From a virus: a DNA stretch of 64,000 nucleotides. The stretch lies in IMG/VR virus record IMGVR_UViG_3300045988_122854, one strand, 5' to 3'. Below are positions 34,655 to 57,074 of this stretch, one piece after another. Under the pieces are notes generated by a model. The model worked only from the letters and a program-made list of their open reading frames with translations. It made no database searches and was not told the DNA's origin. Within the stretch, counting starts at the first letter, position 1. Each line of letters opens with the position of its first letter. The position numbers and the translations under genes are program-made.

Positions 34655-35170
34655 ATGAATACCTCTTTTCTTATTTTCTATATATATTATATACTATTTT
34701 TTTAAAAATGTCAAGATTTTTTTGGATGAAAACATACGTGTGAAACAATGTAAGGACGAAGCAATTTTTAATTAATTATAAAGGCATATGATCCTACGCG
34801 GGCTTAAAAAAGTCTTTTTTTACTATTATAACATATTTTTTATAAAAAGTCAATTTTCGGGATTTTTTTGGGCCATATGAGAGGGTGCTAGAAGTATGAA
34901 AAATTTTGCATATGGGTATACCGATCGGAAACTCGGCCCGCGACGTTCCACCGCGGGCCGGCCAAATAGACTGAGTATTCCGGGATTTTAGTCTGAGTCT
35001 ATTTTAAACACTTTTTTCGCGCGAAATTTGCTAAACCTATAATTATTCCGAAATTCCGCCCGGAGCGTCAGTGATCGGGCGGTCCATTATACCACATTTT
35101 CCGATCGGTGTCAATAGGCAAAACGCACAAAAAAATCAGCAGGTTTTTAGTCAACCTGCTGATTGAATAT

Positions 35171-35587
35171 TTATGCAAGAAATGCGTTTACAATTTCATC
35201 GAAAACCGTGGGGTTAATGTCCACGTTAAAAAAGCGGTCGTTCTTGCGGAACGCTTTGGGGTATCGTCTAATCAGTTCCGCACGCAATGCGCTTTCCGCG
35301 CCCTCGGCGGGATAATCGCCACAAGAACGGATTCGATGAACTTCCACGCGCGTGATAGAATACTTTTTCGCGTATTCGCCGATTTCATCACGCAAGCGCC
35401 CTACAACGTCTTTTGCGGAAGTGCCTACCTTGTTAAATTCAAGTTCATTGTTGTTGTAAAACTTGAAAAAGTAGACCGCTTGAACGTCTTTCAGATTCTC
35501 GCCACAATTAGGCATAAACTCCATTGAAACAGGCGGTCTACCGTCCTTAAATCGGCGTAGCTTAATAGTAATTTCTTCCATTGACAC
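35171..35587 (-). CDS. Hypothetical protein, possible T5orf172 / GIY-YIG-like domain
   Basis: VYFFKFYNNNELEFNKVGTS...VVGRLRDE pattern; weak. Confidence 0.35.
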   Translation of the reverse strand: MSMEEITIKLRRFKDGRPPVSMEFMPNCGENLKDVQAVYFFKFYNNNELEFNKVGTSAKDVVGRLRDEIGEYAKKYSITRVEVHRIRSCGDYPAEGAESALRAELIRRYPKAFRKNDRFFNVDINPTVFDEIVNAFLA

Positions 35588-36211
35588 AAAATCCTCCCTA
35601 TTGATTGAGGTTTACCATCGTTCTCTCAACCATTATTTTTTGCACTTTTTGACTTGTTTTTGGGTGAAAAACCGCATTTTTCAGCGGTTTTTCACCCTTT
35701 TTCATCAGTTTTTGGGCTTTCGCTTCTGAATCAGGGTCAATTCGTAGTCATTTTCGCCCACATGGAACGCAATCATGCGCTCCACATTCGTAATTTCTAC
35801 GTTTTCGCACGCATTTTCGCTGTTTTCTCGCAAAAAAGTTGCAAGTTCAGCGATAATCGAGCGTTTTGTGGGGTTTTCCTTGCGCTGTCGCTTCTCAAAT
35901 TTATAAGCGGTCGGCGCTTTGCGTGTTCCGGTTTTAGAATACTTGTTAGCTTCTTTGAGCTTTTCCGCAGACAGGTCAAAGTCTTTGGCGATTCCATGGT
36001 CAATGTCATCATCGTCCATGAGAATTTCTTTTGCTTCCTCGGCAGTACAATCTAACTTTTTCATCAGATTGTCAATCTTTGCCTGAAAGTCCTTTTCACT
36101 CATTTTAGGCATTTTCTTTGCCCCCTTTCAAGTATGATTATAACACCGCCGTTAGCAAATGTCAAGAGAAATTTTTGGGAGCGCCTGATTTTTTTCAGGC
36201 GCTCCCCTGAA

Positions 36212-36589
36212 TCAGTGGGCGAGACGGAAGTAGGACTTGCGCTTGTCCACAATCTTCTCGACGCCGTTCGCTTCAATCATCTGACGCAGAAGAGCGGAAA
36301 CGCGCTGATTGGTGAGGTCGCCCAGACCGTCCACATTCTTGATGAGTTCGGTCACAGTGTAGAGCTTGTCAGGATTCGCGGACAGCTCGGCAAAGATAAT
36401 GTCCTTGTAGCCGTCGTTCGCAATCTGATTCGCGGTCGGCTTCTTATCACCGGCGTTCTTGCGAGCCAACAGGTCAATCTCGTGATTGATAAACTCAACC
36501 ATGGCGGGGTCAGCCTGAACCTCGCTCATTTTGAGCAGAGCCTCGAAACGGTCGCGCTTGGTGAGCTTCTTAACAGTAGAAGTAGACAT
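36212..36589 (-). CDS. Paralog-family protein (125 aa), copy 2
   Basis: About 70% identical to 38831..39211 over its full length. Confidence 0.55.
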   Translation of the reverse strand: MSTSTVKKLTKRDRFEALLKMSEVQADPAMVEFINHEIDLLARKNAGDKKPTANQIANDGYKDIIFAELSANPDKLYTVTELIKNVDGLGDLTNQRVSALLRQMIEANGVEKIVDKRKSYFRLAH

Positions 36590-36599
36590 AGTATCAATT

Positions 36600-37160
36600 C
36601 CTTTCTTTGCGGTAGGTCGCTACCCTTTTGATATATTGAGTATACTACATTTTAGAGTGCTTGTCAAGAGGTTTCGCAAACTTTTTACACGAATTACTAC
36701 CCCGACCTGACGGATAATTTATTGTTTGTTGGTTCAATCTATCTGTCAGCGAAAATCGCTTCGAGTATAGTTGGCTCAATCAAACTCACTTTCGCGTTCA
36801 ACGTTTGGCTTTACAACGTGGTGTATTATGTTTACTTCCTGTACTTTCTCAAGGTCGCGCGCCCTCGGATTTCTTGGGCTACTCCCTCTTGACATTTTCT
36901 ATTGTAGCACACTCGCTGGGATTTGTCAAGAGGTTTTCAAGAAAAAACTCATGAATTTTTTCTTTTATCCCGTGCGTTCCGCTCCGAAGAGACCTTAACG
37001 TAATAGGTGAACGGTCTATTGCTACTTCCAACCGTAGCCCCACACCGACCTGTGGCTCAGGGGTTTCCCTCTTGACATTATTCATTATAGCAGATTCCAC
37101 ATAGATTACAATTGACAAAATAACCAAATTACGGGAAAAAATTTTCTTCACTTTTGTGCA
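36600..37160 (-). promoter_or_regulatory. 560-bp non-coding leader with at least 3 tandem minus-strand promoters (TTGACA...TGcTATACT/TACAAT) and GC-rich structured segments
   Basis: No credible ORF (the 172-aa call 36879..37397 has implausible composition). Repeated ccctcttgacatt...tatagca blocks at 36880, 37060, 37170. Confidence 0.45.
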
Positions 37161-37313
37161 ACTTTTCTCTTGACAAAATTGGCGGGGTGTGGTATAATGG
37201 TGAATTCGGCCCGCTTTGGGCGTTAGCGGGCCGACCATTTTAACACAAAAATCCGCGTTTGTCAATAGGTAAAATAGACAAAAAAAACTGCCCATTTTTG
37301 GGCAGTTTTTCAT
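37070..37313. repeat. Face-to-face promoter / GC-hairpin module, copy A
   Basis: Plus TTGACA 37170-75 and TATAAT 37193-98. Hairpin cggcccgc...gcgggccg at 37207-33. Minus -10 (plus atttta 37237-42) and -35 (plus tgtcaa 37260-65), each with a 17-nt spacer. Terminator ctgccca-ttttt-gggcag at 37283-37311. Confidence 0.55.
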
Positions 37314-37314
37314 T

Positions 37315-37560
37315 TTAGTCCAGCAGGTTAATTTCTCCTGGAATTCTGAAAGAATCAGCGTCCAGTGTGGAATTGTAGTCCTCGGTAAAGAGTTCAATCA
37401 TTCCACATTCCATGACGTAATTCTGAACCGACCGCCGAACATTGTTCCAGAGGTCAGTCTTTCGGCTTTCCGCTCGGGCTTCCTTGGCTTCCTTTGCCTG
37501 AGCGATGAGTTCGTCCAGTTCTTCGTCAGTCATGTAATTAAAATCCAAATCCATTTTCAA
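37315..37560 (-). CDS. Small acidic hypothetical protein
   Basis: Intact ORF. Confidence 0.45.
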   Translation of the reverse strand: MKMDLDFNYMTDEELDELIAQAKEAKEARAESRKTDLWNNVRRSVQNYVMECGMIELFTEDYNSTLDADSFRIPGEINLLD

Positions 37561-37862
37561 AACTCCCCCTTAATGGCTTCTTTCCACGCGTCCCAGCCGA
37601 ACTTTCCCTCACTATCCAGCTTTTTGCCGATGCCTTTTGCGGTCAGTAGGTCAAGCTCGTCCGCGATTTCCTCTTCAAAGTTTACCCAAGAGTCGTAGGT
37701 CTGAATAATGACAATTTCGTCGGCTTCAAAGACGCCACCGCACTCGGCACAGATAACATAGTCATGGTCGATTAAAATGCCCATGTGAGGGTCATTGTCA
37801 TCAGGGACTACAAAAAGGACTTGTTTAGCGTTCATGTGAAACACCTCTTTCATTTGATACAT
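37557..37862 (-). CDS. Hypothetical protein (101 aa)
   Basis: ORF with 4-nt overlap to the next gene. Confidence 0.45.
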   Translation of the reverse strand: MYQMKEVFHMNAKQVLFVVPDDNDPHMGILIDHDYVICAECGGVFEADEIVIIQTYDSWVNFEEEIADELDLLTAKGIGKKLDSEGKFGWDAWKEAIKGEF

Positions 37863-37912
37863 TGATTATACCATAGGGAATAGGACTTGTCAAGCCCTAT
37901 TCCCTATTTTTT

Positions 37913-38689
37913 TTAGCCCATGTTTACAACGGGATTTTCCTTAATGTTTCGCATGAGCGCGCGCTGAAACTCGGTCGGCTTGGGGCGTTCCACCGTGGGA
38001 GTTTTGAAAAGGGACTTTTCCATAGTCTTGTGCTGTCGAACGCAATAGCGCAAAATCTCAACTTCAATGAGAACGTCTTCAAGTCCCGTATGCGATTCAT
38101 CAAAAGTGTCTTCGCCGCTGATAAAGCGATAGAGAATTTCTGCGGTAAAGCGGAGTTGTCCGTTCTTGGTCTTATAGCCGTTCTTTTCGCAATAGTCGCG
38201 ATAAGTAGGCATTTTGCCGATGACCTGTCGCGCCATTTTCAACGTGTCCCATATTTCAAGGTCGTAGGGGAAAAAATAGCGATACTTGCTTTTCGTGTCC
38301 CATCTTTGCGCGTTGTTGCAAGCGTTAAGGTCGAACCGCATATTGTGAGCGCACACAAAAGAACAGTTATAACGCTCGACGCAATCACAAAATGCCTTGC
38401 GGATTTCGTAAAGGTCAGCCATCACGCGCGAACCGTTCTTAATGTCCTCAACATAGCGGGGAATCTTGTCGGCGTAGTATGCGGACTGCATGAGGTCGCG
38501 CTCGTAGCAGAAAATATCTCGATTCACAAAGGAATAAGTTTCATAAACATTGCCCTTGGAATCAATAACCGCCCAGCCGAAGTCATAGGGAAGAACATTT
38601 GACATATCCAGCTTATCGCCGTCCTGAATGGTGTTCGCAGTTTCCGTGTCAAGCATAATACCGTAGTTTTTGCGCCTATCAATACCCAT
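37913..38689 (-). CDS. DEDDh 3'-5' exonuclease (DnaQ/epsilon-like)
   Basis: Exo I MLDTETA, Exo II VCAHNMRFDLNA, Exo III SHTGLEDVLI. Confidence 0.75.
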   Translation of the reverse strand: MGIDRRKNYGIMLDTETANTIQDGDKLDMSNVLPYDFGWAVIDSKGNVYETYSFVNRDIFCYERDLMQSAYYADKIPRYVEDIKNGSRVMADLYEIRKAFCDCVERYNCSFVCAHNMRFDLNACNNAQRWDTKSKYRYFFPYDLEIWDTLKMARQVIGKMPTYRDYCEKNGYKTKNGQLRFTAEILYRFISGEDTFDESHTGLEDVLIEVEILRYCVRQHKTMEKSLFKTPTVERPKPTEFQRALMRNIKENPVVNMG

Positions 38690-38830
38690 CTTATCGTCTC
38701 CTATTGGAAAAGTAGATTGAGGTTTACCATCGTTCTCTCAACCTCTGATAATAGTATAGCACTTTGCTATTGGTTTGTCAAGAGTTTTTTAATAGGGCAG
38801 GGGATTTTTTTATCCCCTGCCCTTTTCCCT

Positions 38831-39211
38831 TTACGCGAGGGAGAAGTAGGACTTGCGCTTGTCAACCGTCTTGACAACGGTGTTCGCGTCAATCATCTGA
38901 CGCAGAAGAGCGGAAACGCGCTGGTTAGAATACTCCGCAAGCTCGGGAACACCCTTGATGAGGTCGGTCACGGTATACAGCTTGTCAGGGTTGGCGGTCA
39001 TTTCGTCCAGAATGACCTGCTTCACAGCGTCATTCTCCATCTGCTTGGCCGTGGGCTTCTTATCACCCGCGTTCTTCTTGGCGAGCAGTTCAATCTCGTG
39101 CTCGATGAACGCCACCATGTCAGGATTCGCCTGAACCTCGCTCATTTTGAGCAGAGCCTCGAAACGGTCGCGCTTAGTGAGCTTCTTAGTCGTAGTAGTA
39201 GAAGTAGCCAT
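38831..39211 (-). CDS. Paralog-family protein (126 aa), copy 3
   Basis: See 36212..36589. Confidence 0.55.
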   Translation of the reverse strand: MATSTTTTKKLTKRDRFEALLKMSEVQANPDMVAFIEHEIELLAKKNAGDKKPTAKQMENDAVKQVILDEMTANPDKLYTVTDLIKGVPELAEYSNQRVSALLRQMIDANTVVKTVDKRKSYFSLA

Positions 39212-39229
39212 AGTATCAATTCCTTTCCG

Positions 39230-39620
39230 GTTTTTAAGACTGTCCTTGTCTTTGATGTAGTTATTATATCATAGGCGGAGCAGGCTGTCAATAGTTTTTG
39301 TAGATTTTTTTTAGGGGCGGTCGCGAGGTTTATTACTATACATCTTGTTTATACCTACCTTTATCTATAATCATAAACCAATTCATTTTACTAAACCAAA
39401 TCAATCTTTAAGGCGGTGGGCGAGCATCAGAAATCATCTTGTTTACCTCTTTTATTTGATGTATTCATTATACCCTACGTTGAGCGGTTTGTCAAGGGGT
39501 TTTTCAAACTTTTTTGAAAGTTTGTTCGGCACGCCACGCTTGGAACATTCCGTCGGATTTTGGTATAATGGCCAAGGGAACTGCCTTTCCGCAGGTCTTA
39601 CTCTTTCCTCCTGACATTAT
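39230..39620 (-). promoter_or_regulatory. 390-bp non-coding leader with tandem promoters, two mini-ORFs (10 and 9 aa) and a GC-rich structured segment
   Basis: Minus strand: TTGACA-N17-TATAAT at about 39250-39285; ext-10 TGCTATACT at about 39600; aggtaaacaagATG...taa (MISDARPPP) and aggtataaacaagATG...taa (MYSNKPRDRP). Confidence 0.4.
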
Positions 39621-39852
39621 GTAGTATAGCAGATTGGTATTGATTTGTCTATTGGCAAAATAACCAAATAACGGGAAAAAATAAAATTGAAATTTGTGCA
39701 AAATTTCTCTTGACAAAAATGCTGGCGGGGTGTATAATGGTAAATTCCGGCCGCGACATGCGTTGGCGGCCGGCCATTATATCACATTTAGATGGTTTTG
39801 TCAATAGTCAAATTAAACAAAAAAATCTCCCCAAAATTGGGGAGATTTTCAT
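39620..39852. repeat. Face-to-face promoter / GC-hairpin module, copy B
   Basis: Plus TTGACA 39710-15 and TATAAT 39733-38. Hairpin ccggccgc...gcggccgg at 39747-74. Minus TATAAT (plus attata) and TTGACA (plus tgtcaa 39799-804). Terminator at 39820-39850. Confidence 0.55.
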
Positions 39853-40128
39853 TTGAAATTAGTCAATGATACTAACTTCGGTCTTGACAGGCGTTACCAT
39901 CTTTTCGCGCGGGAACTCGCGAATCTGACCCGTTTCGAGGTTGACCGCATAGCAAAACTGCCAACCTCTTGATTTGAGGAACGGGGCTTTGTTGTTCCCA
40001 TCAATTTTAAGATACATACCCATTCCGCCCTCGCTTCTCAGTGTGGTGAACGTGCCACCGCACAGGATATTCATAATTTGGAGCTGACCCTTATCGCCAA
40101 AATTTACTTTCATTTTTTACTTCCCCTT

Positions 40129-40443
40129 TCAAAATTCTTCTAAGAAATGAATCGGTTTGTGATTTGGTCTGAAAAATGCCATTCCCTCATTGTAAAGAGA
40201 ATTAAACAAAAATTCGGGCACTTCAAACCATTCCGTACCACTAATGCGAATACCTAACTCATTTAAAGTCTGATGACAAGCATTTTCCATGTCTCGACTG
40301 CCCGCACAAGTGCTACGCATTATTGCTTTTGGATTGTGGCTATAATAGCTTTTGCGACGCTTTGAGAGGTTTTTAGTGCCATCGGAATAGCCAACTTTTA
40401 CTAAATGGCTATTGGCTAAATTATCCATCATCAAATACAGCAT
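40129..40443 (-). CDS. Hypothetical protein (104 aa)
   Basis: Intact ORF. Confidence 0.45.
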   Translation of the reverse strand: MLYLMMDNLANSHLVKVGYSDGTKNLSKRRKSYYSHNPKAIMRSTCAGSRDMENACHQTLNELGIRISGTEWFEVPEFLFNSLYNEGMAFFRPNHKPIHFLEEF

Positions 40444-40599
40444 TTTTACCTCACAGCAGATGGGTATTAACCCATTCTGCGGTCACAAGTCCAATTTCCT
40501 TAGAGACAACCGTTTCATAACGGTAATTACCACCGGCAGTTCGTCCGGTCACTTTGGCGAGAACGCCAAGGGTAAGCCAAAAATAAGGCATCATTTTTA

Positions 40600-40806
40600 T
40601 CACCCCTTTGAACCGACCGTAAAGAGCGAACGCAGAAGCAACAGAACAATCCAAATTGCGAGTGCCAGCTTCCACGAGAACACGATGACGAAAGTGCCGA
40701 TTGCGGTGATGCCGAGGGCGGGAAGAAGCCAGCAGAGAAGCCAGACAAAACCAGAGGTAAGCAGGAACGAAATTGCGAGAGACAACAGAATCAAAAGAAC
40801 AAACAT
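40600..40806 (-). CDS. 68-aa membrane peptide (two transmembrane helices); a 47-aa ORF (40451..40594) follows
   Basis: Hydrophobic sequence MFVLLILLSLAISFLLTSGFVWLLCWLLPALGITAIGTFVIVF... Confidence 0.35.
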   Translation of the reverse strand: MFVLLILLSLAISFLLTSGFVWLLCWLLPALGITAIGTFVIVFSWKLALAIWIVLLLLRSLFTVGSKG

Positions 40807-40861
40807 TTTATTTTCCCCTTTTCATTTGATGTATTTATTATACCATTGGAGTAGGGCTTTG

Positions 40862-41362
40862 TCAAGCCCTTTTCTCCAAAAGTTCCGAAAGTTTTTCGAT
40901 AATGTTTACTGCGGTCGGGTCGATGGTAGCGCCCAAGTGCCAACCATTCCGAACCTTTTCATTATCGTCAACCAAGATGGATACGTCGTAGCGGTCGCGC
41001 ACGCTGTCGGCCTTAGTCGCGCCATACTGGACGCCGTGGAAGTGGTCATAGTGGAAGCCCTGTTCTTCAAGCCACGCGCGCTTTGCTTCACGAACGGCGT
41101 TCTTGTATTCCTCGCTTGAATCCTTAGAGAGCCAAGTAATGATATTGATTTCCCAACCCTCGGCGCGGAGAAGTTCGCAAACTTCATTCAGTTCAGCCAT
41201 ATCACACATAGGAACGGCAGTTCGATAGGGCTTAGGATTTTCCGAACGGAGAAGCGCAAGCCAATCCTTGACGCCGTAGAGGTCAGCAATAGTGCCGTCC
41301 ATGTCAAAGTTAATGGAACGTCGAGTGGCTACAACGTGGGACTTGATGTAAATAATTTTCAT
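40862..41362 (-). CDS. HAD-superfamily 5'(3')-deoxyribonucleotidase-like protein
   Basis: Motif I FDMDGTIADL (DxDGT) and motif IV ILVDDN. Confidence 0.6.
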   Translation of the reverse strand: MKIIYIKSHVVATRRSINFDMDGTIADLYGVKDWLALLRSENPKPYRTAVPMCDMAELNEVCELLRAEGWEINIITWLSKDSSEEYKNAVREAKRAWLEEQGFHYDHFHGVQYGATKADSVRDRYDVSILVDDNEKVRNGWHLGATIDPTAVNIIEKLSELLEKRA

Positions 41363-41954
41363 AGATATTTACCCCTTTCCTTTACTGTATCTGTATTATA
41401 TCATACGTTTGCGCAGTTGTCAAGAGAAATTTTAGCAATTTTTCGCTTTATTTATCCATTCTTTCCATTGGTCTTCGGCAAACTTTTTATGCTCTTCCTG
41501 CCAAAGACCGCGTGCGATAACGTCTTTTACCGCGTCGTCAATGGAGAGATATTGGTCGAGAAGAACAAAGTCCTCGCAAAAGAACCGAGTTCGACCAAAG
41601 AATTTGCGGTTAGGGCGGATAACTTCATATACATAGATGAATAAAAAATCCCTATACGCTTCTTCACTGTACGCCTTGACCTCAAAGGTTCTTCCCTCAT
41701 ATTCATAAGTTTTCGGCTTACTCATAGTGCTTACCCCTTCCTTTACTATGCTTGTATTATACCACTATTGGATTTGCTTGTCAAGTGTTTTTTTCAAAAT
41801 TTTCGCGGTCTTTCTCAATACACGAAAGATAAGAAATTAAGCAAAATCAACACAGGAATAGCGTATACGATATTGAAAGAGTCCCACCCGAGACTTTCAC
41901 AGGAATAAGCAAAAATAAAGCCAAAAACGAGGCCAAAAATGCCGATTAAAATAA

Positions 41955-42218
41955 TCATTCTAAATCCTCTATATGACCGTAGTGTTCGTTGATATGCCAT
42001 TCAAGATAGGCATTAGTCGCAATCTGAATTTCTATATCTAACCAGTTATAAAAATCCTCGGGGTCGCGGGCCATGCGTTCATTAATAATATCAGCAAGAG
42101 AAACGCGATGAGCAAGGAATTCCGAAATATCAAGAGAATCCATAGAAGAAAGAAGCTCTTCCACACATTCTCCGCGAGTAGAGAACTTCTCAGTAGAAAA
42201 ATCGTGAGTGTAATACAT
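41955..42218 (-). CDS. Small acidic hypothetical protein (87 aa)
   Basis: Start taken at MYYTHD with AAAGGAAAGGGGA RBS; the upstream part of the longer ORF call is promoter/leader. Confidence 0.45.
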   Translation of the reverse strand: MYYTHDFSTEKFSTRGECVEELLSSMDSLDISEFLAHRVSLADIINERMARDPEDFYNWLDIEIQIATNAYLEWHINEHYGHIEDLE

Positions 42219-42239
42219 TGTTTGTATCCCCTTTCCTTT

Positions 42240-42485
42240 ACGGTAATCATAGTATAGCAGATTATTACATTCTTGTCTATTGGTAAAATGCCCAAATTCG
42301 GGAAAATAATTAGTTGGACTTTTGGCTAAATTTCCTATTGACAAATTGCTGGGATGGTGGTATAATGGAATTTCCGGCCGTGGCAGGCGCAAACGGCCGG
42401 CCATTTTATCACACTATTGGATTTTTGTCAATAGGCAAAATAAATAAAATTTTGAGACGAGATTTGGTTATCTCGTCTCAAAATA
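42240..42485. repeat. Face-to-face promoter / GC-hairpin module, copy C
   Basis: Plus TTGACA 42338-43 and TATAAT 42361-66. Hairpin ccggccg...cggccgg at 42375-42401. Minus -35 (plus tgtcaa 42426-31). Terminator at 42452-84. Confidence 0.55.
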
Positions 42486-42488
42486 TTT

Positions 42489-42941: not shown

Positions 42942-43005
42942 TTTAATTTTCCCCTTTCACTTGATACGTTAAGTATAGCAGAACAAAAGGCTTTTGTCAA
43001 GCCCT

Positions 43006-44039: not shown

Positions 44040-44216
44040 TTTTGTCTATTGGCATTTTACACAAAAATTCGTGTGAAAATTTGTTGAACTTACCTCTTGA
44101 CAGAAAACTCGGCGCGCCACAGTCGTCCGCGCGCCGCCAATTTTATCACATTCAAGGAACTTTGTCAATAGTGAAATTAAACAAAAAAAATCTCCCAAAT
44201 TTGGGAGATTTTTCAT
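44040..44216. repeat. Promoter / GC-hairpin module, copy D (variant subtype)
   Basis: ttgaacttacctcttgacagaaaactc, then hairpin cggcgcgcc...ggcgcgccg at 44110-36, then tgtcaatag at 44163 and terminator at 44184-44215. Confidence 0.45.
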
Positions 44217-44749
44217 TTAGTTTTCTACGGCTTCGAGGTCGGCGAGAATGGGGACGAGCTTGTCTTCAAGAAGCGCGACACGTTCAATCATGTCATTTGC
44301 TTCTGCACCGCCCGATGGGTATCTCTTCTGAATACCGTATCGAGCCATTCTGCACACCGTTTCAACAACCTCGCTCAGTTTCTCATTCTTCATTTTTTTT
44401 ATCTCCATTCAATTTATTTTTTGGAAAGGGTGGCGGTTGTTTCAGGCACAACCGCCAAAGCCATAGGAAAGGGGGAGAAAAACACGAACAAAAGTTCGGT
44501 TTTGTCAAGGGATAATGAGTTCCGCGTCATAGACAGGCCGAACCATGCAAGGTGCGCCAAAGCAGTCGAGATTGTAAGTGTCCAAATTGAGAGCGTTCCA
44601 TTCTTCTGCGCCGGTATCTTCATCAACCACTGACGCGGTTTTGATGTAATAGACGTTTCCGGAAGCAGGGTCTTGAAAAATCATACCCTCGGGGAGGTCT
44701 TCAAATGCAACCATTTTGTTGCTATGCTTAACAGTAATTTTCATTTTAT

Positions 44750-45103
44750 TCACCCTTTATAATAGTATTTGTAAGCCCATTCAATGATTTCATGGCTCGT
44801 GGTAGTCCATTTTTCTTTATGGTTGTCAAACTTTTCCGCGCTTTTTTCAACATAATCATTATATTCCATGCGCGCGGTGTCGTATGCTCCAATAGCTACA
44901 AGCAAAGATTGTTTTGCTTTTTCAGCGTCAGACACGGCTTTCTTGCGGTCAGCGCCATCGGGGTAGAGGTTAATCACCCCTACGCGCGTAATGACTTGCC
45001 TTGTCTTTTCATAAAGGCGGTCGCGCTCTTCCCAAACTTTATAAATCAAATCGTCTGCATGACTTTCATATGGGTTGAAAGGCTTCTTTTTCTTACCGAA
45101 CAT
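44750..45103 (-). CDS. Hypothetical protein (about 117 aa)
   Basis: Start at MFGKKKK. The upstream part of the ORF call overlaps 45093..45431 in another frame. Confidence 0.4.
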   Translation of the reverse strand: MFGKKKKPFNPYESHADDLIYKVWEERDRLYEKTRQVITRVGVINLYPDGADRKKAVSDAEKAKQSLLVAIGAYDTARMEYNDYVEKSAEKFDNHKEKWTTTSHEIIEWAYKYYYKG

Positions 45104-45431
45104 TTTTCTTTTTCTCCTTTTCCTGTTTATTCCACATTTTATCGAAGAACGCATTTGCGAGGACACGCTTGTAAAGGTTGTCAGGCATGGGGCGCTCGCC
45201 GTGCTTGTTTCTCCATATTGCGGTGATTTTATCAATATCCGCGATATAGGCGGTAATGAGCGTGCCGTCCTTAGCGCTACGAATAAGCAGAATACCGGTC
45301 GTAGTGATAGTGTAAAGAACATCGTCCTCAACGCTGTCGATATACGGTTCGCCGATTCCTACATTATCGTAGATGAAGAGCAGGCGGTCAATGCGGTCTT
45401 GCGTGGCGTGTTTTGACATTTTGATAAGCAT
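45093..45431 (-). CDS. Hypothetical protein (112 aa)
   Basis: Intact ORF. Confidence 0.45.
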   Translation of the reverse strand: MLIKMSKHATQDRIDRLLFIYDNVGIGEPYIDSVEDDVLYTITTTGILLIRSAKDGTLITAYIADIDKITAIWRNKHGERPMPDNLYKRVLANAFFDKMWNKQEKEKKKNVR

Positions 45432-45722
45432 TTGTTTTACCTCTTTCTTTTCCTCTTGGATTGATTATATTATACCATATGGGGAGGGGCTTGTCAAGCC
45501 CCTTTAATATAATTGTTCCCCATCGTGGTAGCGCTCATATTCCGCTTCAAGGAAGTCGAGAATAGTTTCAAAGTCGTCTGCGTCTGCGGGGTCTGCAAAG
45601 GTCTTTTCAAGAACTTCGTTAGTGTGTCTATTGTAAACTCGAACCATATCCATTTTATTTACCTCTTTCTTGATTGTATATGTATTATACCATGCGGAAG
45701 GGTTTTTGTCAAGCCCTTTTTA

Positions 45723-45929
45723 TCAGAAATGATAATTTCTGATGATGGCGTCGAATTTGGGAGCATATACCTTTTCCCACTGTTCTTCAAGTGTCTGGTC
45801 ATTCGTACGATATAATTCCCACTGAACCGCGCCATAAGCGTTGTGCTTGAAAAGCTCGGCGTCGCTGGGCATCTGCTCGGCATAGAGAAGCTGGGTCTTG
45901 ATAAAAGAGTGAATGTTGTAGTTAGTCAT
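45723..45929 (-). CDS. Small hypothetical protein (68 aa)
   Basis: Start at MTNYNIH with GAGGT RBS; the upstream part of the ORF call translates the conserved promoter (CYTIIVPRE). Confidence 0.4.
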   Translation of the reverse strand: MTNYNIHSFIKTQLLYAEQMPSDAELFKHNAYGAVQWELYRTNDQTLEEQWEKVYAPKFDAIIRNYHF

Positions 45930-45987
45930 TTTATTTACCTCATCTTTCTGTTCCCTTGGAACAATTATAGTATAGCAAATGCTTAGG

Positions 45988-46195
45988 CATTTGTCTATTG
46001 ACGGATCGCACAAAATTGGGAAAAATAATTTGTGCAAATTTTCACAACTTTTTGCTTGACAAATTGCTGGCCCTGTGATATAATGGAAATTCCGGGCGCG
46101 TGGGCCGTGCGCGCCCGGCCGAATGACCATTGTTAAAATTTTAACAAAAATGAAATAGAAAGGGCGCGGTAATTATCGGCTACCGCGCAAACCAT
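45988..46195. repeat. Promoter / GC-hairpin module, copy E, plus a second hairpin
   Basis: Plus TTGACA 46055-60 and TATAAT 46078-83. Hairpin ccgggcgcg...cgcgcccgg at 46091-118. Second hairpin gcgcggta...taccgcgc at 46163-90. Confidence 0.5.
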
Positions 46196-46332
46196 AGTAT
46201 GAAAAATTTGTTTACTACTTCAAGAGGCTTACCATTTCCTCTTGACAAGATTATAATACCACAACGGGGCGAGTTTGTCAATAGTTTTTTGAAAAAAATT
46301 TTCAGGCGAGATAATTAAATCTCGCCTGAAAA

Positions 46333-46614
46333 TTACACGTCCCACATGGCTTCCGCAATCCAGAAGTATTCATAGCGGAGTTTGGACTGAATCGCAAACA
46401 AGGCGTCCGCAAGTTCTCCGCCGTCTCTATAATCTTCCTCGTCTGAAAGTTTCTGACTTTCTTTTGCAATTCTTTGAGCCAATTTTTCAATGGCGTCTGC
46501 CTGTTCTCTCAAAGCCTGCGGGATAGGTTTTTCATTCATTATTTGTTCCCCCTTTTCACATTTAACGCATTGAGCGTGTGTTCCGCACTTTCTATCACAA
46601 TAAGGACATTCCAT
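46333..46614 (-). CDS. Small protein with a C4 zinc-ribbon N-terminus (93 aa)
   Basis: MECPYCDRKCGTHAQCVKCEKG. Confidence 0.45.
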   Translation of the reverse strand: MECPYCDRKCGTHAQCVKCEKGEQIMNEKPIPQALREQADAIEKLAQRIAKESQKLSDEEDYRDGGELADALFAIQSKLRYEYFWIAEAMWDV

Positions 46615-46810
46615 TTTAGTTCCCCTTTCTCAACTCTTTTTTGAGTTCTTCCCATTCACCCGGATAAAGTTCAATGTTAGTGTTATCAATACACTTTCCA
46701 ATGAATTCAATCTGCTCCTCAGTAAATTTCATTTTCTTGTTTCCCTTTCCTTTGATACATTAAGTATAGCAGAAAAAGGGCTTTTTGTCAAGCCCTTTTT
46801 CTTATTTTTT

Positions 46811-47173
46811 TCAACTTTCTTTTCTAATGGAGTAGTAGCCCCTTTTTCCTTTTCCAGGCTTGTAAATCAACTTTCTATCAGTCCAGCAAAGCTGACTACA
46901 ATACCATGAAACGGTGGAGCAAGAATATTCCTTGCCGGTCTCACGGTAAAGAATAAACTGAATTTCCGTGGGGCGCAGGGGTTTTTCTGCCTTTGAGAGG
47001 ATATCGAGCATCATGTTTTTCATCATGGTGTTGCGGATTTCCTGTTTTCGCCTCTGCTCTTCTCTGGCTTCTTCGAATTTCTGGCAAGCCCGTTCCGCCT
47101 GAAATGCGTCCATTCCTGTAAAAGTGCCATTATCAAGGCATTTTCTCAAAAGACTATAAACTTCAAAGTTCAT
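46811..47173 (-). CDS. Hypothetical protein (120 aa)
   Basis: Intact ORF. Confidence 0.45.
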   Translation of the reverse strand: MNFEVYSLLRKCLDNGTFTGMDAFQAERACQKFEEAREEQRRKQEIRNTMMKNMMLDILSKAEKPLRPTEIQFILYRETGKEYSCSTVSWYCSQLCWTDRKLIYKPGKGKRGYYSIRKES

Positions 47174-47625
47174 CGTATCAACATTCCCTTTCCTTTATTA
47201 TGCCTTTATTATAACATCTGCTTTTGGATTTGTCAAAGGCCTTTTGGAAAAAGAGGGAAAAATTTTCCTTCTTTATTTATCCCCAATAGATCGAAAGAAC
47301 GTTTTCAATGTAGCTGGCTTTATAACCATAATTCTGCATGATATCTTTGCAAGCCTGCCTGACCTTCTTGTCATTTATTGAAGCAAGAGAACATTCGTAA
47401 AGTGTTTCTCCCGTTCCTGCTACTCGCTCAATTTCTGGCATGATATGGTCTTCGATGAATGCCCGCGCAAGGGCATTGTTTTTAGCTTGAATTTCTTTGC
47501 GGACTTCTTCGGCTTTGCGCGTCATTTCATAAGCATATTTAATTTCCATGGTGTTTTTCCCTTTCCTTTGATGTTTTTATTATAGCATATAGGGCTTGTT
47601 TTGTCAAGCCCTATATGCTATTTTT

Positions 47626-47934
47626 TTAGCAATAGGCGAGATTCCCGCGCGCCCAGCCATATACGCTAATTTGATTGCACGCCTTGCCAATTTCAAGCGC
47701 CTGCTTCTTGGTCTGCACCCTCTTAGACTTGTCAACATAATAGATGCCGTTCGCAAGCCACACACCGCAGTTTCCGCCGAAGTCCTTAACCGCGTTAATA
47801 GCTTCGCGGGCGGTCTTGCACTCTACGCCGTTGGTAGCGACCTGCCAGCCGGACTTGTAGTTGACTTTCTTGCCATATTTAAGGGTCATGCCGTCGTTTT
47901 CAGCGAGCTTGCGAATAGAACGAATGTTAATCAT
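47626..47934 (-). CDS. Hypothetical protein (102 aa)
   Basis: Start at MINIRSIRK with GGAAAGGGA RBS; the upstream part of the ORF call is promoter. Confidence 0.45.
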   Translation of the reverse strand: MINIRSIRKLAENDGMTLKYGKKVNYKSGWQVATNGVECKTAREAINAVKDFGGNCGVWLANGIYYVDKSKRVQTKKQALEIGKACNQISVYGWARGNLAYC

Positions 47935-47989
47935 GTTGTTATCCCTTTCCGGTTTGGTAGGTTTTCCTTCCCTTACTGTGATTATAGTA

Positions 47990-48175
47990 TAGCACCGATT
48001 CGGGATTCTGTCTATTGACATTATGCACAAAGGTTTGCCATAAAAATTGTTGAACTTGCCTATTGATACAAAATTCCGGCCGCGCCTGGCGTGCACGGCC
48101 GGCCGAATGAATATGCAAAATGGAGCGTATAAAAATTCAGCGGATTTTTATGCAATCCGCTGAATTTTTATTTTT
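47990..48175. repeat. Promoter / GC-hairpin module, copy F (variant subtype)
   Basis: Hairpin ccggccg...cggccgg at 48077-108; terminator aaaaattcagcggattttt-atgca-atccgctgaattttt at 48135-72. Confidence 0.45.
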
Positions 48176-48179
48176 ATTT

Positions 48180-48419
48180 TCAGCCATCAACGTAAATGAT
48201 AAGAACATCATCTTTGGCTTTCAAACCGCTAACCGGCAGTCCCAGCACCCATTCTTCACTTGCGCCCAAAACATCGCCGTTCAAAGTCATGCGACCTTTG
48301 CGGTCTTTGAGATAGCGACCGCAAGTGTTTTCATTTATCACTTCAATGCCGTTTCCCTCATAGAACATCAGCGCGCCCTTTACCAGACCAATCACATTTT
48401 TAACCATGCCCAAAGTCAT
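48180..48419 (-). CDS. Small hypothetical protein (79 aa)
   Basis: Start at MTLGMV with GAAAGAGG RBS. Confidence 0.4.
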   Translation of the reverse strand: MTLGMVKNVIGLVKGALMFYEGNGIEVINENTCGRYLKDRKGRMTLNGDVLGASEEWVLGLPVSGLKAKDDVLIIYVDG

Positions 48420-48847
48420 TTTTGTCAGCCTCTTTCGTTTTAATGTTGTTCCCCTTGGAACGATTATAGTATAGTATAAACTATAACAAAAGTCAATAGG
48501 TAAAATGACAAAAAGAATCGGCAGGATTTTGTGTATCCTGCCGATTTTTTTAATCTTCCCAACTCTCAATGACTTCACCGGTCATTGCATTGATAATGTC
48601 AACCGAGAGGACGTTGTCCGCGTCCATAAACTTCTGTCCGAGGGCATATGCGTTTTCCTGTCCCGCGACAGACACTTCATAGCGATAGCGGTTGTTATCA
48701 CCAGCCTTGTAGTTGTAGTAGTTGACAGAAACAATAAATAACATTTGGTTTATCCCCTTTCTTTTTATACTCTTATTATACCATAGATTCGGGATTTGTC
48801 AATAGGTTTTTCAAATCTTTTCAAAAAAAATAAGGGCGTTTCCGCCC

Positions 48848-49105
48848 TTAATTTTCATAAATAATAACATTATTTTGTAGCAGTTTCACGCGAGAATCTT
48901 CACAAAAGTGATAGGTAAAACTCACGGAGAGATGTTTGAGAAATTCGCGTCTCCATGTGCGGGACTTCGGTTCTAATTCAAAGAGAATGTAAAGCGTTTC
49001 CTCTAACCGGTCGAGGAAGTTTTCAGTGTCCGCGACGTTGAACTTGCCCGCGAATTTCGGAATAGGATTAGAAGTCCCAATAGTAATAATGTTGTAAGTT
49101 GTCAT
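48848..49105 (-). CDS. Hypothetical protein (85 aa)
   Basis: Start at MTTYNI with AAAGGAG RBS. Confidence 0.4.
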   Translation of the reverse strand: MTTYNIITIGTSNPIPKFAGKFNVADTENFLDRLEETLYILFELEPKSRTWRREFLKHLSVSFTYHFCEDSRVKLLQNNVIIYEN

Positions 49106-49904
49106 GGAAAAAATCTCCTTTTCATTTGATGCTTTTATTATACATGATAGTGTGGAACTTGTCAATACTTAAAATAGAAAAAAGAGAAGTTTTTCAACTT
49201 CTCTTTTTCAGTTTCTTTTCTGCCCATTCAATGAGCGCGCCCGCGGCGATTGTGCCAGTATAAATGAAAAGTAAAACTAAACCGTCATGTAAACTCATTT
49301 TAATATTCCTCCACATACTCTGTAAAAACAAGCTCCCAATCAGGGCCAAGATCCGGAGCTTTGCAGTATCGCGACTGTCGAATGTCATGCTCATTAGTAA
49401 TTTTGTTGATAAACTCGAATTCATACATTGTTGTTATCTCCTTTTCTTTATTGTATCTACATTATAGCAGATAACAGGGCATTTGTCAATACCATTTATA
49501 AAAAAATGTACGAGGTTTAATCCTCGTACATTTCCATTAATGATTTGATTTTTTCAATTGTATTCTCAATTTCTTCTACATAGTCGGCTTGCTCCTCACT
49601 TGCGCGCATTGCTTGTTCATATGCGTCATAGATAGCTTCGCACTGTTCACGGGTATATTCTTCTTCTGGCGCGTGCTCCATAGTGACGACTGCCGCCCAT
49701 GCAAGCGTTTCCGTATCGTCAAGATCATCGGCCTTTTCCGTGGCAGCGGTGAGTTCATGTTCGAGGCGCGTCTTTTCGAGCGAGAGGGTCTTGAGAAAAT
49801 CCTTGTTAGTCATTGTGGTGTATCTCCTTTTCTTTTGATACCTCTATTATAGCACTTCTGGACTGAATGTCAATAGGTTTTTGAAAAAAATATTTATTCA
49901 TCAG

Positions 49905-50130
49905 GGCTGTATAAATATTCATGTATAAATATTCATTTTCGGGTGCATAAAGGCGACTGGCATAATGCACAAATTCGTCTGAAAATTTTTGTGCAACTTG
50001 CCTATTGCAAAACTCGGCGCGCCGCGGCCCACGTCGCGCCGCCCAAATGAATATGTATGAATATGCAATGAATATTCATATGAATATTTATGAATCAAAA
50101 TGAAAAATAAAGAGAGAAGCTTAATAAGCT
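49905..50130. repeat. Promoter / GC-hairpin module, copy G (variant subtype), with about 9 AATATTCAT / ATGAATAT repeats
   Basis: tgtataaatattcatgtataaatattcat at 49905-32; hairpin cggcgcgccg...cgcgccg at 50013-40; atgaatatgtatgaatatgcaatgaatattcatatgaatatttatgaatc at 50043-98. Confidence 0.45.
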
Positions 50131-50480
50131 TCTCTCCATACCTTAATGATAACATCATCTGAAAAGTCATCATATGTATCATTGTCATTTATCCACAGCA
50201 ACAGGAAGTCATTATCATCAATATTCATATGTTCGACTTCCCACAGGTTACCCTGCTCGTCCAGTAGTGTGATAACGTCCTCATTTCGGGATTCGACTTC
50301 TGCGCCGACAAAACGAATACTTCCGCGTTCTGTGCCTGCGCCGCACCAATTGTCAATAACAGTGAGGTCATATGACTGCGGCGCTTCCTCACACGCTTCG
50401 GTGGTCTGGTTATGAGATACGAACATAGTAGCACTAATCAGAAGCGCAATAGCGAGCATATAGTTGATGATGTTTTTCAT
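50121..50480 (-). CDS. Secreted protein (119 aa) with an N-terminal signal peptide
   Basis: MKNIINYMLAIALLISATMFVSHNQT. Confidence 0.45.
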   Translation of the reverse strand: MKNIINYMLAIALLISATMFVSHNQTTEACEEAPQSYDLTVIDNWCGAGTERGSIRFVGAEVESRNEDVITLLDEQGNLWEVEHMNIDDNDFLLLWINDNDTYDDFSDDVIIKVWREAY

Positions 50481-50661
50481 GGTTCTTTCCTTTCTTCATT
50501 AAATGATAGCAATGAGCGACAAAAGAGCGACAGTGCTGGCAATGGCGCGAGCGGGCTTCTTACTGTCTACGCTATACACAAAATTATAAGCGCAGATAGA
50601 AGTAAGACAGATAATAGCAATAGTAGACATAATATACACCTCTTTTTATGGAGCGAGTGGG

Positions 50662-51141
50662 TTAAACCCACTCGCTAAACAGGTCGCGGATAACGTCTTC
50701 CCGCTCATCGTCGGGAAGCTGGTCAATCCCACATTCATAGGTGGTCAGAACGGTCAAGCGGTTGCCCACGCTGGCGTTCTCGCGTTCAAACTTGGCGCGC
50801 TCGCCCTCGCCGTGGAAGTAAGCAACATAATCGTAGATATCACCGAACTCATTATCCATGACGCTATACTCTACCACGATAAAGCGCGTGGTGTTCCATA
50901 CACTCGCAATAACTGCAAGGTCGCTGGCGAGTTCCTGCTCATAGCGCAAGCATTTAAGCGCGGTCGCAATATTGACCTTTTCTTGTTTGGCGCTGGCTTT
51001 TAACCATGTGCCCGTCATAGCTTGATATTTGGTCATGTGGTCAGTCACTTTGCGCTGACCCTCGCGCACCATATCGCGCGCCTTTTCTGCCATGTTGTTG
51101 ATATCTGCGCAAGTGTAAGAAGTGAGATTGATGATTTTCAT
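50662..51141 (-). CDS. Hypothetical protein (159 aa)
   Basis: Intact ORF. Confidence 0.45.
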   Translation of the reverse strand: MKIINLTSYTCADINNMAEKARDMVREGQRKVTDHMTKYQAMTGTWLKASAKQEKVNIATALKCLRYEQELASDLAVIASVWNTTRFIVVEYSVMDNEFGDIYDYVAYFHGEGERAKFERENASVGNRLTVLTTYECGIDQLPDDEREDVIRDLFSEWV

Positions 51142-51202
51142 AGTATGACCCTTTCCGCGCTATCGCGCTAATACGTTATTATTCTTCTGAATGGGAGAGA
51201 GG

Positions 51203-51583
51203 TTAACCTCTCTCCGCAATTTCCGTTTCCTGCTTGGCGCTCGCCCATGCGATGCTTGTGCGGGTGTTGCCTGCCTTGCGATATTCCTCTGCGCCTGCCG
51301 GAGTGCCGCCTAACGCGAGGGCATACGCCTGCCAGTCAATAGCGCCTTTTGCCGCCGTTTCGGTGTAAACAACGTGCTTGACTTCCCCTTGCTTTTGCAA
51401 AGAAAGCGTCAGAAAATCGGACTTTTCACTTGCCTTGTATTCCTTGCCCAAGTCCGCAAATAAATCTTTTGCGGCGGCTTTTGCGGCTTTTTCAGCCTTG
51501 CTTGCAATGTCCAGTGCTTCTTTTGCGTCAAGGTAGTTAATAAGCACGGCGCGCTGTTCATTCTTAATATCGACTTTTTTCAT
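51203..51583 (-). CDS. Ala/Lys-rich hypothetical protein (about 126 aa)
   Basis: Start at MKKVDIK. Confidence 0.4.
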   Translation of the reverse strand: MKKVDIKNEQRAVLINYLDAKEALDIASKAEKAAKAAAKDLFADLGKEYKASEKSDFLTLSLQKQGEVKHVVYTETAAKGAIDWQAYALALGGTPAGAEEYRKAGNTRTSIAWASAKQETEIAERG

Positions 51584-51867
51584 GGTGTTCAACCTCGTAT
51601 CATGTATTTGCTGTTCGGCGCTTGCGCCGTTCAGCATGGTTACATGGTAGCAGATTCAACCACGGAATACAAGTGGCAGATTGCACAAAAGTTTCTATTG
51701 ACGGGGGTCTGTTTTTGTGCAGCTCGACGAGCGCGGTTCGCTTGTAGTATACCTTTGCATTATTATCCAGCAGAGAATGAATAAAACCTGCATAGGGCGG
51801 GGTGTATTTCGGGAAAAATAAATTTTTATTCATCGTTTTTTCTTTTGCCTGATCAAAACGCAATCTA

Positions 51868-51965
51868 AATCAATTTTCAATTTCAAAATACGGGGAAAAA
51901 TAATAAATCAATTTTCAATTTCAGATTACGAAGAATAATTACTTAATTTTAAATCACGAAAAAAT
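51868..51965. repeat. Iteron-like direct repeats at the junction between the island and the AT-rich block
   Basis: tcaattttcaatttcaaaatacgggg / tcaattttcaatttcagattacgaag / taattttaaatcacgaaaaaa / taattttacgatttc. Confidence 0.45.
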
Positions 51966-53006: not shown

Positions 53007-53030
53007 TATAAATATAGACTGGAGGTAAAA

Positions 53031-57062: not shown

Positions 57063-57074
57063 GGAGGGTGGAAA

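Follow-up and report, generated by a model that had tools for sequence, protein, structure and literature searches.

The DNA considered here is a 64,000-nucleotide stretch of viral sequence (IMG/VR record IMGVR_UViG_3300045988_122854; hereafter, the window), in which a block of small leftward genes, the island, is punctuated by modules of about 250 bp built around a short GC-rich hairpin. The island contains some 39–44 small leftward open reading frames (ORFs) with good ribosome-binding sites; the proteins encoded by about 40 of them are 38–258 amino acids long, and most have no Pfam or PHROG match. Its GC content (fraction of G and C) is 0.39–0.46 over 34–52 kb, against 0.285 immediately to the right and 0.19–0.29 at 1–11 kb. 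An earlier reading of this DNA (the original prediction) had described a jump in GC from about 30% to about 45–50%; the island is indeed raised, but the contrast is modest on the left side, where the flank at 11–34 kb has 0.32–0.42. A scan for sites within 1.5 penalty points of TTGACA-17-(TG)TATAAT detected 33 near-consensus minus-strand promoters in the island (TTGACA, 16–18 nt, TATAAT, mostly TG-extended) and few elsewhere in the window; a second promoter scan gave 78 promoter-like sites, compared to 35.5 +/- 6.7 in shuffled sequence, with 22 perfect 12-of-12 matches. At least 35 leftward genes had been predicted, each with a promoter of its own. The gene number is in keeping with the present count, but several small operons occur, in which some genes lack their own promoter.

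A search for GC-only stems recovered nine hairpins, each exactly 27 nt in length (Table 1). The pattern CSGSNCG-N13-CGNSCSG is matched nine times in the 64 kb, where 0.01 matches would be expected, and all nine matches are these hairpins and lie within the island. We refer to the 27-nt hairpin as H27, to the leftward promoter that abuts it as Pa, to the opposing promoter as Panti, to the second leftward promoter as Pb and to the terminator as T1; the modules are cited by their position in kb. The repetition far exceeds chance, as had been noted, although the count was put at seven or eight and the hairpin at 34934 was overlooked. The length, the GC-rich composition and the differing loops were correctly described, and the stems also differ among the copies. 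The invariant part of the modules is H27 itself; the promoters vary.

Near-consensus plus-strand promoters occur beside the hairpin only in modules 37.2, 39.7, 42.4 and 46.1, with the -10 box 7–8 nt away, and minus-strand promoters abut it only in modules 35.07, 37.2, 39.7, 42.4 and 44.1, with the -10 box at 2–3 nt. Both promoters are thus found in 37.2, 39.7 and 42.4, the leftward one only in 35.07 and 44.1, the rightward one only in 46.1, and neither in 34.94, 48.1 and 50.0. The face-to-face pair formerly attributed to every module is present in the first three, in which the -10 boxes do lie about 45 bp apart, and is lacking in the other six copies. The copy at 35.07 had been termed degenerate, yet its leftward promoter is a perfect consensus. 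In the alignment, modules 44.1, 48.1 and 50.0 are missing a segment of about 28 nt in which the plus-strand -10 box and spacer are located; what remains beside the hairpin is a -35-like TTGACA, TTGATA or TTGCAA. A weaker additional face-to-face pair, 39540–39569 (plus strand; TTGGAA-18-TGgTATAAT) against 39651–39623 (minus strand), brackets a small CTGC/GCAG hairpin in a non-coding unit below module 39.7.

Table 1. Positions of the island, the H27 copies and the associated predicted promoters, terminators and RNA in the window.
Feature	Position	Strand	Remarks
Putative early-gene island	34277–51863	-	About 40 small leftward ORFs; 33–34 near-consensus sigma-70-type promoters
H27 copy 34.94	34934–34960	-	No adjacent consensus promoter on either strand
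H27 copy 35.07	35056–35082	-	Pa 35114–35086 (TTGACA-17-TGgTATAAT), -10 box ends 3 nt before hairpin
H27 copy 37.2, face-to-face	37207–37233	-	
Pa of module 37.2	37237–37265	-	TTGACA-17-TGtTAAAAT
Panti of module 37.2	37170–37198	+	TTGACA-17-TGgTATAAT, -10 box ends 8 nt before hairpin
Predicted rightward RNA of module 37.2	37203–37312	+	5' hairpin, linker, bidirectional terminator 37282–37311
H27 copy 39.7, face-to-face	39747–39773	-	Pa 39804–39776 (-); Panti 39710–39738 (+); T1 39821–39850
H27 copy 42.4, face-to-face	42374–42400	-	Pa 42431–42403 (-); Panti 42338–42366 (+); T1 42449–42484
H27 copy 44.1	44110–44136	-	Pa 44168–44140 only; T1 44185–44214; Pb 44020–44049; on the other side only a -35-like TTGACA abutting the hairpin
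H27 copy 46.1	46092–46118	-	Panti 46056–46084 (+) only
H27 copy 48.1	48076–48102	-	No adjacent consensus promoter; passes simple terminator scan (10 pairs, tail AATTTTGTAT)
H27 copy 50.0	50015–50041	-	No adjacent consensus promoter; loop is the inverted 46.1 loop
Pb, second leftward promoter after each module (example)	39623–39651	-	TAGACA-17-TGcTATACT
Pb, other examples	37111–37084, 42279–42251, 45997–45969, 48014–47986	-	
Ordinary intergenic unit (PeSL-like)	47582–47621	-	Terminator stem-loop overlapping next promoter; crossover site relative to L009

The hairpin was then followed beyond the window. Among 22 related loci fetched via the exonuclease-like gene at 37913–38689, hairpins of this type, always 27 nt long and with arms that differ in sequence but remain complementary, are present in 14 close relatives as well as in another clade (63% identity). 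IMG/VR was scanned with a pattern in which two stem positions and the loop were left free, and at least 120 loci from dozens of metagenome datasets were matched; the H27 counts beyond the window rest on the loci listed. At least one H27 is carried by 95 of the 146 IMG/VR loci that were fetched. The two free stem positions, at which ten dinucleotide types occur, are both Watson-Crick paired in 67 of the 102 unique matches listed, compared to 12.9 +/- 3.1 (maximum 25) after shuffling of the partners. Since complementarity was not part of the search pattern, this test of covariation is unbiased.

The family is characterized by the core C-S-G-S-N-C-G, N13 and its complement, preceded by T(-4)-n-G-G and followed by A-R-T-T-T. 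In the 109–111 unique copies listed, the bases at four stem positions do not vary (C at S1, G at S3, C at S6 and G at S7), whereas S2, S4 and S5 covary. An eighth pair (L1–L13) is Watson-Crick in 91 of 109 copies versus 54 expected, and a ninth is partial. Loop positions L5–6 and L9–10 are mostly CG. An asymmetric inner loop helix (L4–L11, L5–L10) was considered and rejected, as these positions are conserved without covariation. The first four bases of the 3' flank (A-R-T-T) were partly imposed by the filter, but they also occur in about 95% of the unfiltered copies from the clade of the window. The stems have folding energies of -13 to -23 kcal/mol. At the inner pairs G-U outnumbers A-C in the sense orientation (9:1 and 15:6, in related sequences), which hints at a role in the sense-strand RNA.

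Comparison with Rfam yielded only a tRNA at the gathering threshold, and a search at E <= 1 gave only sub-threshold terminator-like matches and no known RNA family. Near and distant DNA matching against 50,697 GenBank phage records produced none for the modules, only for an AbrB-like gene and an AT-rich promoter stretch. In IMG/VR, both H27 and the geometry of Panti and hairpin reappear. The bacterial genome matches listed are mostly to GC-rich genomes, and probably represent chance or ordinary terminators; the remaining ones are contigs, either short or of phage size, placed in the bins of Clostridia, Eubacteriales, Lachnospiraceae or Oscillospiraceae genomes, and no multi-copy host family resembling chromosomal repetitive extragenic palindromes (REP) occurs among them. 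H27 is a well-defined and widespread hairpin family, and no description of it was found in Rfam or in the papers searched. Rare 37-nt GC hairpins with H27 flanks (L009 809–845, L021 4609–4645) are found where relatives have the 27-nt form, and are considered rare length variants of H27.

The orientation of H27 relative to transcription was assessed in a diverse set of 73 modules less than 80% alike. A coding-strand heuristic was uninformative for this purpose, and the direction of the neighbouring promoters was used in its place. In 41 of the 73 modules a near-consensus promoter lies 30–230 nt away on the ARTTT side and fires away from H27, and the mirror arrangement does not occur, so that H27 has a polarity that follows transcription. 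Measured to the -35 box of this promoter, the spacing from H27 is quantised at about 87, 108, 122 and 132 nt. Upstream, 42 of the 73 modules have a conventional hairpin with a T tail within 90 nt of H27, and where there is none, the nearest upstream ORF ends a median of 76 nt before H27. Promoters that directly adjoin the hairpin are less frequent. A Pa-type promoter was found in 14 of 78 diverse modules, its -10 box ending 2–4 nt before H27 in all 14, and a Panti-type promoter in 17 of 78, at 7–8 nt from H27 in 13 of them. Both are present in five of the 78 and neither in more than 60%, and the geometry of Panti and hairpin recurs in unrelated contigs (e.g., L093 and L123). Most H27 copies have no promoter beside them, are polar and come after one unit has ended and before the next promoter; whatever function all copies share must therefore act on the sense read-through RNA or on the DNA.

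Several further motifs accompany H27. TCCCRAAA co-occurs with it in 47 of the 78 modules; a conserved TCCCGAAA-like motif (47 of 78) occurs in the spacer of the promoter that follows H27 or just upstream of it (window 48014, 48802 and 44049; also L043, L047, L039, L116 and L127, among others). Between H27 and that promoter, inverted TTGCACAA / TTGTGCAA repeats are present in 36 of the 78. Taken together, the motif and the repeats resemble binding sites of a regulator. In the distant phages L124, L056, L125, L061 and L140, arrays of other motifs (GCTAAAGCGCTAA, TGTTAATTAAATAACTATCACAC) follow H27 instead of a sigma-70-type promoter; they may represent iterons or the promoters of a different polymerase.

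Relatives of the window differ by whole-cassette swaps with junctions in terminator and promoter motifs. Relative L009 lacks 1.9 kb of the window (47599–45717; four or five genes together with module 46.1), and the crossover lies in the shared sequence AGGGCTTGACAAAA. In the intergenic unit at this site, ATAGCATATAGGGCTTG-ACAAAA-CAAGCCCTATATGCTAT, the -35 hexamer TTGACA begins in the last part of the 5' arm and extends into the loop, and the -10 box continues from the 3' arm. Many ordinary intergenic units of the island are predicted terminator stem-loops around the promoter that comes next; eight of 34 island promoters show such an overlap, with the -35 box inside a hairpin loop or a hairpin within the spacer, and in five H27 follows the -10 box at 2–3 nt. 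Two unrelated forms of the upstream gene plus terminator exist in the module-42.4 group, joined at the edge between terminator and Pa, and in the module-44.1 group the change of downstream gene comes immediately after Pb's -10 box. Three forms of the Pa spacer occur in module 39.7, one of them identical to the spacer of module 44.1.

The hairpins themselves are exchanged as well. In L008, the hairpin of module 39.7 stands in place of that of module 37.2, and the loops of copies 46.1 and 50.0 are 9-nt reverse complements of one another (CGTGGGCCG) on differing stems, which is interpreted as a small inversion of the kind that palindromes undergo. This was the only case found when loops were examined for complementarity among modules or to other sites in the window. 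Among close relatives, loop nucleotide diversity is 0.35 in module 37.2, 0.35 in 39.7 and 0.23 in 34.94, compared to 0.03–0.10 in the flanks; the loop is three to ten times as variable as the flanks only in these three modules, and the others exhibit no such excess. The exchange of hairpins between modules and the inversion indicate that much of the loop variation stems from recombination at the palindrome, and diversifying selection on the loop may contribute.

Judged by its relatives and codon usage, the window is part of an uncultivated, TAG-recoded gut phage of about 190 kb, distantly related to phAss-1 and with probable Clostridia-type hosts. Close relatives in IMG/VR are contigs of 160–197 kb. 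The conserved gene at 61643–62749 has its best protein-level relatives in an unannotated human-faecal phage contig (58% identity) and in phAss-1 (50%), followed by large Enterococcus, Bacillus and Mammaliicoccus phages. The closest named relative, though a distant one, is phAss-1, which is filed in GenBank under "Caudoviricetes code 15 clade" and whose late genes are TAG-recoded (PMC10607447). When ORFs were read with only TAA and TGA as stops, long ORFs outside the island contained in-frame TAG codons: 9, 8 and 11 at 54–59 kb, 8 at 3.8–5.9 kb and 10 at 27.5–28.5 kb. The 39 island genes examined end in TAA (23) or TGA (16) and never in TAG, and can be read under the standard code; the regions compared were window 1–33000 plus 53000–64000 and island 34277–51863. 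Outside the island, TAG seems to serve as a sense codon, and the absence of TAG leaves the island readable with either code. From the example of other recoded phages we infer that the island is an early region whose transcription and translation precede the onset of recoding, and its lack of TAG fits early genes legible under either code in a code-15 phage.

As to the host, phage-sized contigs of 117–149 kb (L202/L263, L233, L231 and L238) that match the H27 search pattern are binned with metagenome-assembled genomes of Eubacterium, Oscillospiraceae and 'Heliomicrobium', a binning that hints at Clostridia. The window also contains a tRNA-Trp(CCA) gene and an adjoining tRNA-like gene (18–102 and 126–196, minus strand); for the latter ARAGORN gives an odd two-base anticodon, and its anticodon loop is unusual.

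The interpretation that we favour, with somewhat less than even confidence, is that the modules are composite terminator/promoter insulators in which the opposing promoter is optional, and that H27 serves in the sense RNA as an attenuator or 3'-end former. The island would be an early accessory-gene region transcribed by the host polymerase and built from small promoter-gene-terminator cassettes, whose regulatory sequences would double as recombination junctions, as with the promoter-early stem-loop (PeSL) cassettes discussed below. The modules would be its heavy-duty junctions, placed at the end of one unit and about 87–132 nt ahead of the next promoter; in the leftward transcript, H27 would stop read-through from the very strong upstream promoters before it reaches the next, separately controlled one. 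Pa may have evolved in the AT-rich 5' flank of the hairpin, where its start inside the 5' arm would allow its own transcripts to escape H27. Panti may likewise have evolved in the 3' flank, giving a short antisense RNA and a head-on polymerase block, by which insulation would be strengthened and Pa perhaps also tuned.

Start sites were predicted by canonical geometry, 7 nt after the -10 hexamer. For Pa the predicted start falls 2–4 nt inside the 5' arm, and the hairpin is reduced from about -18 to about -5 to -9 kcal/mol; the leftward mRNAs would thus carry a truncated hairpin, and not the stabilising 5' hairpin previously envisaged. For Panti, it falls 0–2 nt before the complete hairpin. The rightward RNA of about 100 nt, said to end at the bidirectional terminator of the upstream gene, is also predicted here for the three face-to-face modules (approximately 105–115 nt, comprising the hairpin, an AU-rich linker and that terminator; z = -5.5, -5.5 and -7.2), but it is not a general feature of the modules.

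Several observations weigh against this insulator interpretation. Two purines (A, R) separate the H27 stem from a short run of three to five T residues, which makes a poor canonical intrinsic terminator, and only one of the nine window copies passes a simple terminator scan. Nor is the T run stronger where a conventional upstream terminator is lacking (4.48 versus 4.55 T in 10 nt). H27 is found at only about half of the island terminators, spaced roughly 2 kb apart, which the insulator role does not explain. Folding energy displays no strand asymmetry (24 versus 24 copies), so that the role in the sense RNA rests only on the modest G-U excess. Finally, the fixed stem positions S1, S3, S6 and S7, the CG dinucleotides of the loop and the conserved flanks suggest a specific recognition factor; a generic terminator would need none of these features.

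A second reading, to which we assign a rather low probability, takes up this last point: H27 would be a polar structured element of many uncultivated Clostridia-type gut phages, recognised by a dedicated phage or host factor, and the variants with paired promoters would produce sense and antisense hairpin RNAs whose fast-changing loops serve as cassette addresses. Such recognition fits the conserved flanks, the loop CGs and the quantised distance to promoters with TCCCGAAA spacers. If true, it would represent a new kind of phage early-gene control, beyond a plain terminator.

It is similarly improbable, in our view, that H27 protects or processes RNA ends, as a cap hairpin against exonucleases that sets the half-lives of early mRNAs. 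5'-terminal stem-loops shield Firmicute mRNAs from RNase J1, and the early mRNAs of phage T7 retain 3' hairpins following cutting by RNase III. H27 could act in this way at the 5' end of the Panti RNA (as the full hairpin) or of the Pa RNA (truncated), at the 5' end of fragments cleaved in the U-rich-GG flank, or at a 3' end after cleavage at A-R-U-U-U. In its flanks (T at -4, G at -2 and -1; A, R, T, T, T in positions +1 to +5), conservation exceeds the needs of a generic hairpin. Compared with the stem-loops that act as 5' stabilisers in Firmicutes, the predicted Panti RNA has a leader of only 0–2 nt ahead of a stem of -14 to -23 kcal/mol, as implied by the position of the -10 box in 13 of 17 cases, and Pa is predicted to start 2–4 nt inside the stem, where the truncated hairpin would still contribute -5 to -9 kcal/mol at the extreme 5' end. 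However, more than 60% of the modules have no promoter beside H27, so that a processing step would be purely hypothetical, and transcripts from the main promoter, Pb, which starts 87–132 nt past H27, would not contain the hairpin.

The model of the original prediction, in which each module is primarily a convergent-promoter cis-antisense switch that acts through stabilising 5' hairpins and through interference or pairing by module-specific loops, now seems quite unlikely. Its geometry does exist in three window modules, each with two consensus promoters whose -10 boxes lie about 45 bp apart. Across 13–14 relatives both promoters are near-invariant while the hairpin varies (0.35 in the loop versus 0.03–0.10 in the flanks of modules 37.2 and 39.7), the variable loop resembles the specificity loops of antisense systems, the predicted rightward RNA resembles a small regulatory RNA, and the arrangement of Panti and hairpin reappears in the unrelated contigs mentioned above. 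Nevertheless, the two promoters coexist in only three of nine window modules and five of 78 diverse ones, and H27 is equally conserved where both are missing. The start of Pa is predicted inside the stem, the antisense RNA would overlap only about 30 nt of the Pa transcript and neither a coding sequence nor a ribosome-binding site, and the gene below each module has a promoter of its own, Pb.

We also consider it doubtful that H27 functions at the DNA level, as a polar protein-binding palindrome or an extruded cruciform or hairpin. H27 might be the site of a phage or host regulator that acts together with the conserved repeats TTGCACAA/TTGTGCAA and with the TCCCGAAA motif of the downstream promoter, a gyrase or topology site of REP type behind units that are strongly transcribed, a site of priming or one resembling an origin, or a hotspot of recombination. 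The hairpin is equally stable on the two strands, and the invariant stem positions, the loop CGs, the fixed, quantised distance to the promoter and the accompanying TCCCRAAA and TTGCACAA-type repeats would suit such a role; short-patch exchange of hairpins and the inversion of the 46.1/50.0 loop are typical of DNA palindromes. On the other hand, a dimeric DNA-binding protein would not require the covariation of the arms between copies, and the preference for G-U over A-C at the inner pairs argues for RNA. The island proteins scanned include no integrase, HUH nuclease or RAYT-like gene, the cassette breakpoints lie at promoters and terminators generally and not specifically at H27, and the bacterial genome matches listed do not reveal H27 as a repeat of any one genome. 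Integron attC sites are imperfect hairpins of variable length with extrahelical bases, RYYYAAC/GTTRRRY cores and a nearby integrase, and the suggestion that the modules might be attC-like was rejected in view of the perfect stems, the fixed 27 nt, the TnGG and ARTTT flanks and the absence of an integrase among the island proteins scanned.

Few of the island proteins could be associated with a known family. The protein of 42489–42941 (minus strand) has an AbrB/MazE-type DNA-binding domain (Pfam PF04014, E = 3e-10), that of 37913–38689 (minus strand) is related to DnaQ-like exonucleases (phrog_20187) and weakly matches a DNA polymerase exonuclease subunit, and that of 40862–41362 (minus strand) is a HAD phosphatase resembling polynucleotide kinase/phosphatase or deoxyribonucleotidase. 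An all-against-all BLASTP comparison revealed only two paralogue pairs, 36212–36589/38831–39211 and 41432–41725/43717–43989 (73% and 36% identity), both at a similar offset below a module; they are taken to be what is left of segmental duplications in the island. A tandemly duplicated 2-kb unit was rejected as the source of the periodicity, as the cassettes between the hairpins are unrelated apart from these two pairs.

Other sequence elements recur in the leaders and between the genes. An identical 29-nt hairpin, GGTTGAGAGAACGATGGTAAACCTCAATC, occurs in the leaders of the exonuclease-like gene and of gene 35171–35587 (window 38700–38745 and 35595–35640, minus strand), just upstream of the ribosome-binding site, and may be a shared translational operator. 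Four units of 100–250 nt that look non-coding start with (A)TGTCARGAGG 5–6 nt past a -10 box (37076, 36893, 39615 and 46246, minus strand), and the same motif opens units in distant phages (L019, L039, L066 and L140). In three of the four window units an ATG lies at the predicted start site, giving possible leaderless ORFs of 18, 39 and 37 amino acids that begin with MSRG/MSGG. In at least units 37076 and 36893, the 5' sequence GTCAAGAGG is the inverted repeat of the CCTCTTGAC located where the following promoter has its -35 box. The units have no Rfam match.

With regard to known systems, the REP elements and bacterial interspersed mosaic elements (BIME) of enterobacteria, like yeast mitochondrial GC clusters and ori elements, are also short GC-rich palindromes with compensatory stem changes, dispersed between genes and placed after the 3' ends of transcription units in a genome richer in AT. 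Unlike them, H27 is phage-borne, of fixed length and perfectly paired, with no RAYT-type transposase evident, and in contrast to REP/BIME it is not multi-copy in any bacterial genome among the matches listed. Intrinsic terminators share with H27 a stable GC stem followed by T residues, a location after genes and a fixed polarity; H27 differs in its conserved A-R before the short T run (mean 4.5 T in 10 nt) and in its loops of 7–13 nt, one of nine window copies passes a standard scan, and the ordinary terminators of the island look different.

Face-to-face promoters and cis-antisense RNAs are known in phages from pR/pL of coliphage 186, Pant/Psar and the sar RNA of P22, and OOP of lambda. There, as is predicted for the face-to-face modules, strong promoters converge over tens of bp and a short antisense RNA ends at a terminator, and by analogy transcriptional interference between the facing promoters is plausible. 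Those systems, however, are single-copy developmental switches with antisense over a ribosome-binding site or coding region, whereas here the pair is repeated, optional (three of nine) and overlaps only a non-coding hairpin between accessory cassettes.

Bacillus phage SPO1's host-takeover module and the early genes in the long terminal repeats of Herelleviridae (PMC6873191, PMC12282133) resemble the island as a cluster of small early genes with strong host-type promoters (TTGAC-, TGxTATACT-like), strong ribosome-binding sites and short operons ending in terminators. No protein homology to gp37–60 was seen in the island, though, and neither an H27-like element nor opposing promoters are described in these two papers.

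The closest likeness is to the PeSL cassettes of T4-type phages (Arbiol et al. 2010, PMC2839356; Comeau et al. 2014, PMC4122927), a described relative of an architecture that had been thought unlike any reported phage system. In both, strong early promoters of sigma-70 consensus are fused to GC-containing stem-loops, which may surround the -35 box, occupy the spacer or directly follow the -10 box; such motifs are concentrated where small ORFan genes form a hyperplastic region, and the breakpoints of indels and replacements between close relatives fall within them. The differences are in the phage, a TAG-recoded relative of phAss-1 with a Firmicute-type host as opposed to a T4-like myovirus, and in the hairpin, since the H27 copies form one homologous family in which the length is constant and the flanks and loop positions are conserved, whereas PeSL stem-loops are heterogeneous. 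In addition, the H27 modules combine several elements (terminator, Pa, H27, optional Panti, Pb), the description of PeSLs includes no opposing promoter, and promoter and terminator activity is here predicted from sequence. In its predicted organization, the island works like the PeSLs, yet is not a member by descent.

This cassette design would thus not be confined to T4-type phages of Gram-negative hosts, and would also govern the code-neutral early region of TAG-recoded gut phages. H27 with its flanks provides a searchable mark of cassette boundaries in hundreds of uncultivated phage genomes, which could help to delimit early and anti-host cassettes and to guide the annotation of promoters and terminators where the host is unidentified; if insulation is confirmed, the modules would offer compact insulator parts for synthetic biology in Firmicutes. 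Taken as a whole, the architecture is, on this comparison, one of PeSL-type mobile regulatory cassettes in a new phage lineage, containing a widespread hairpin family.

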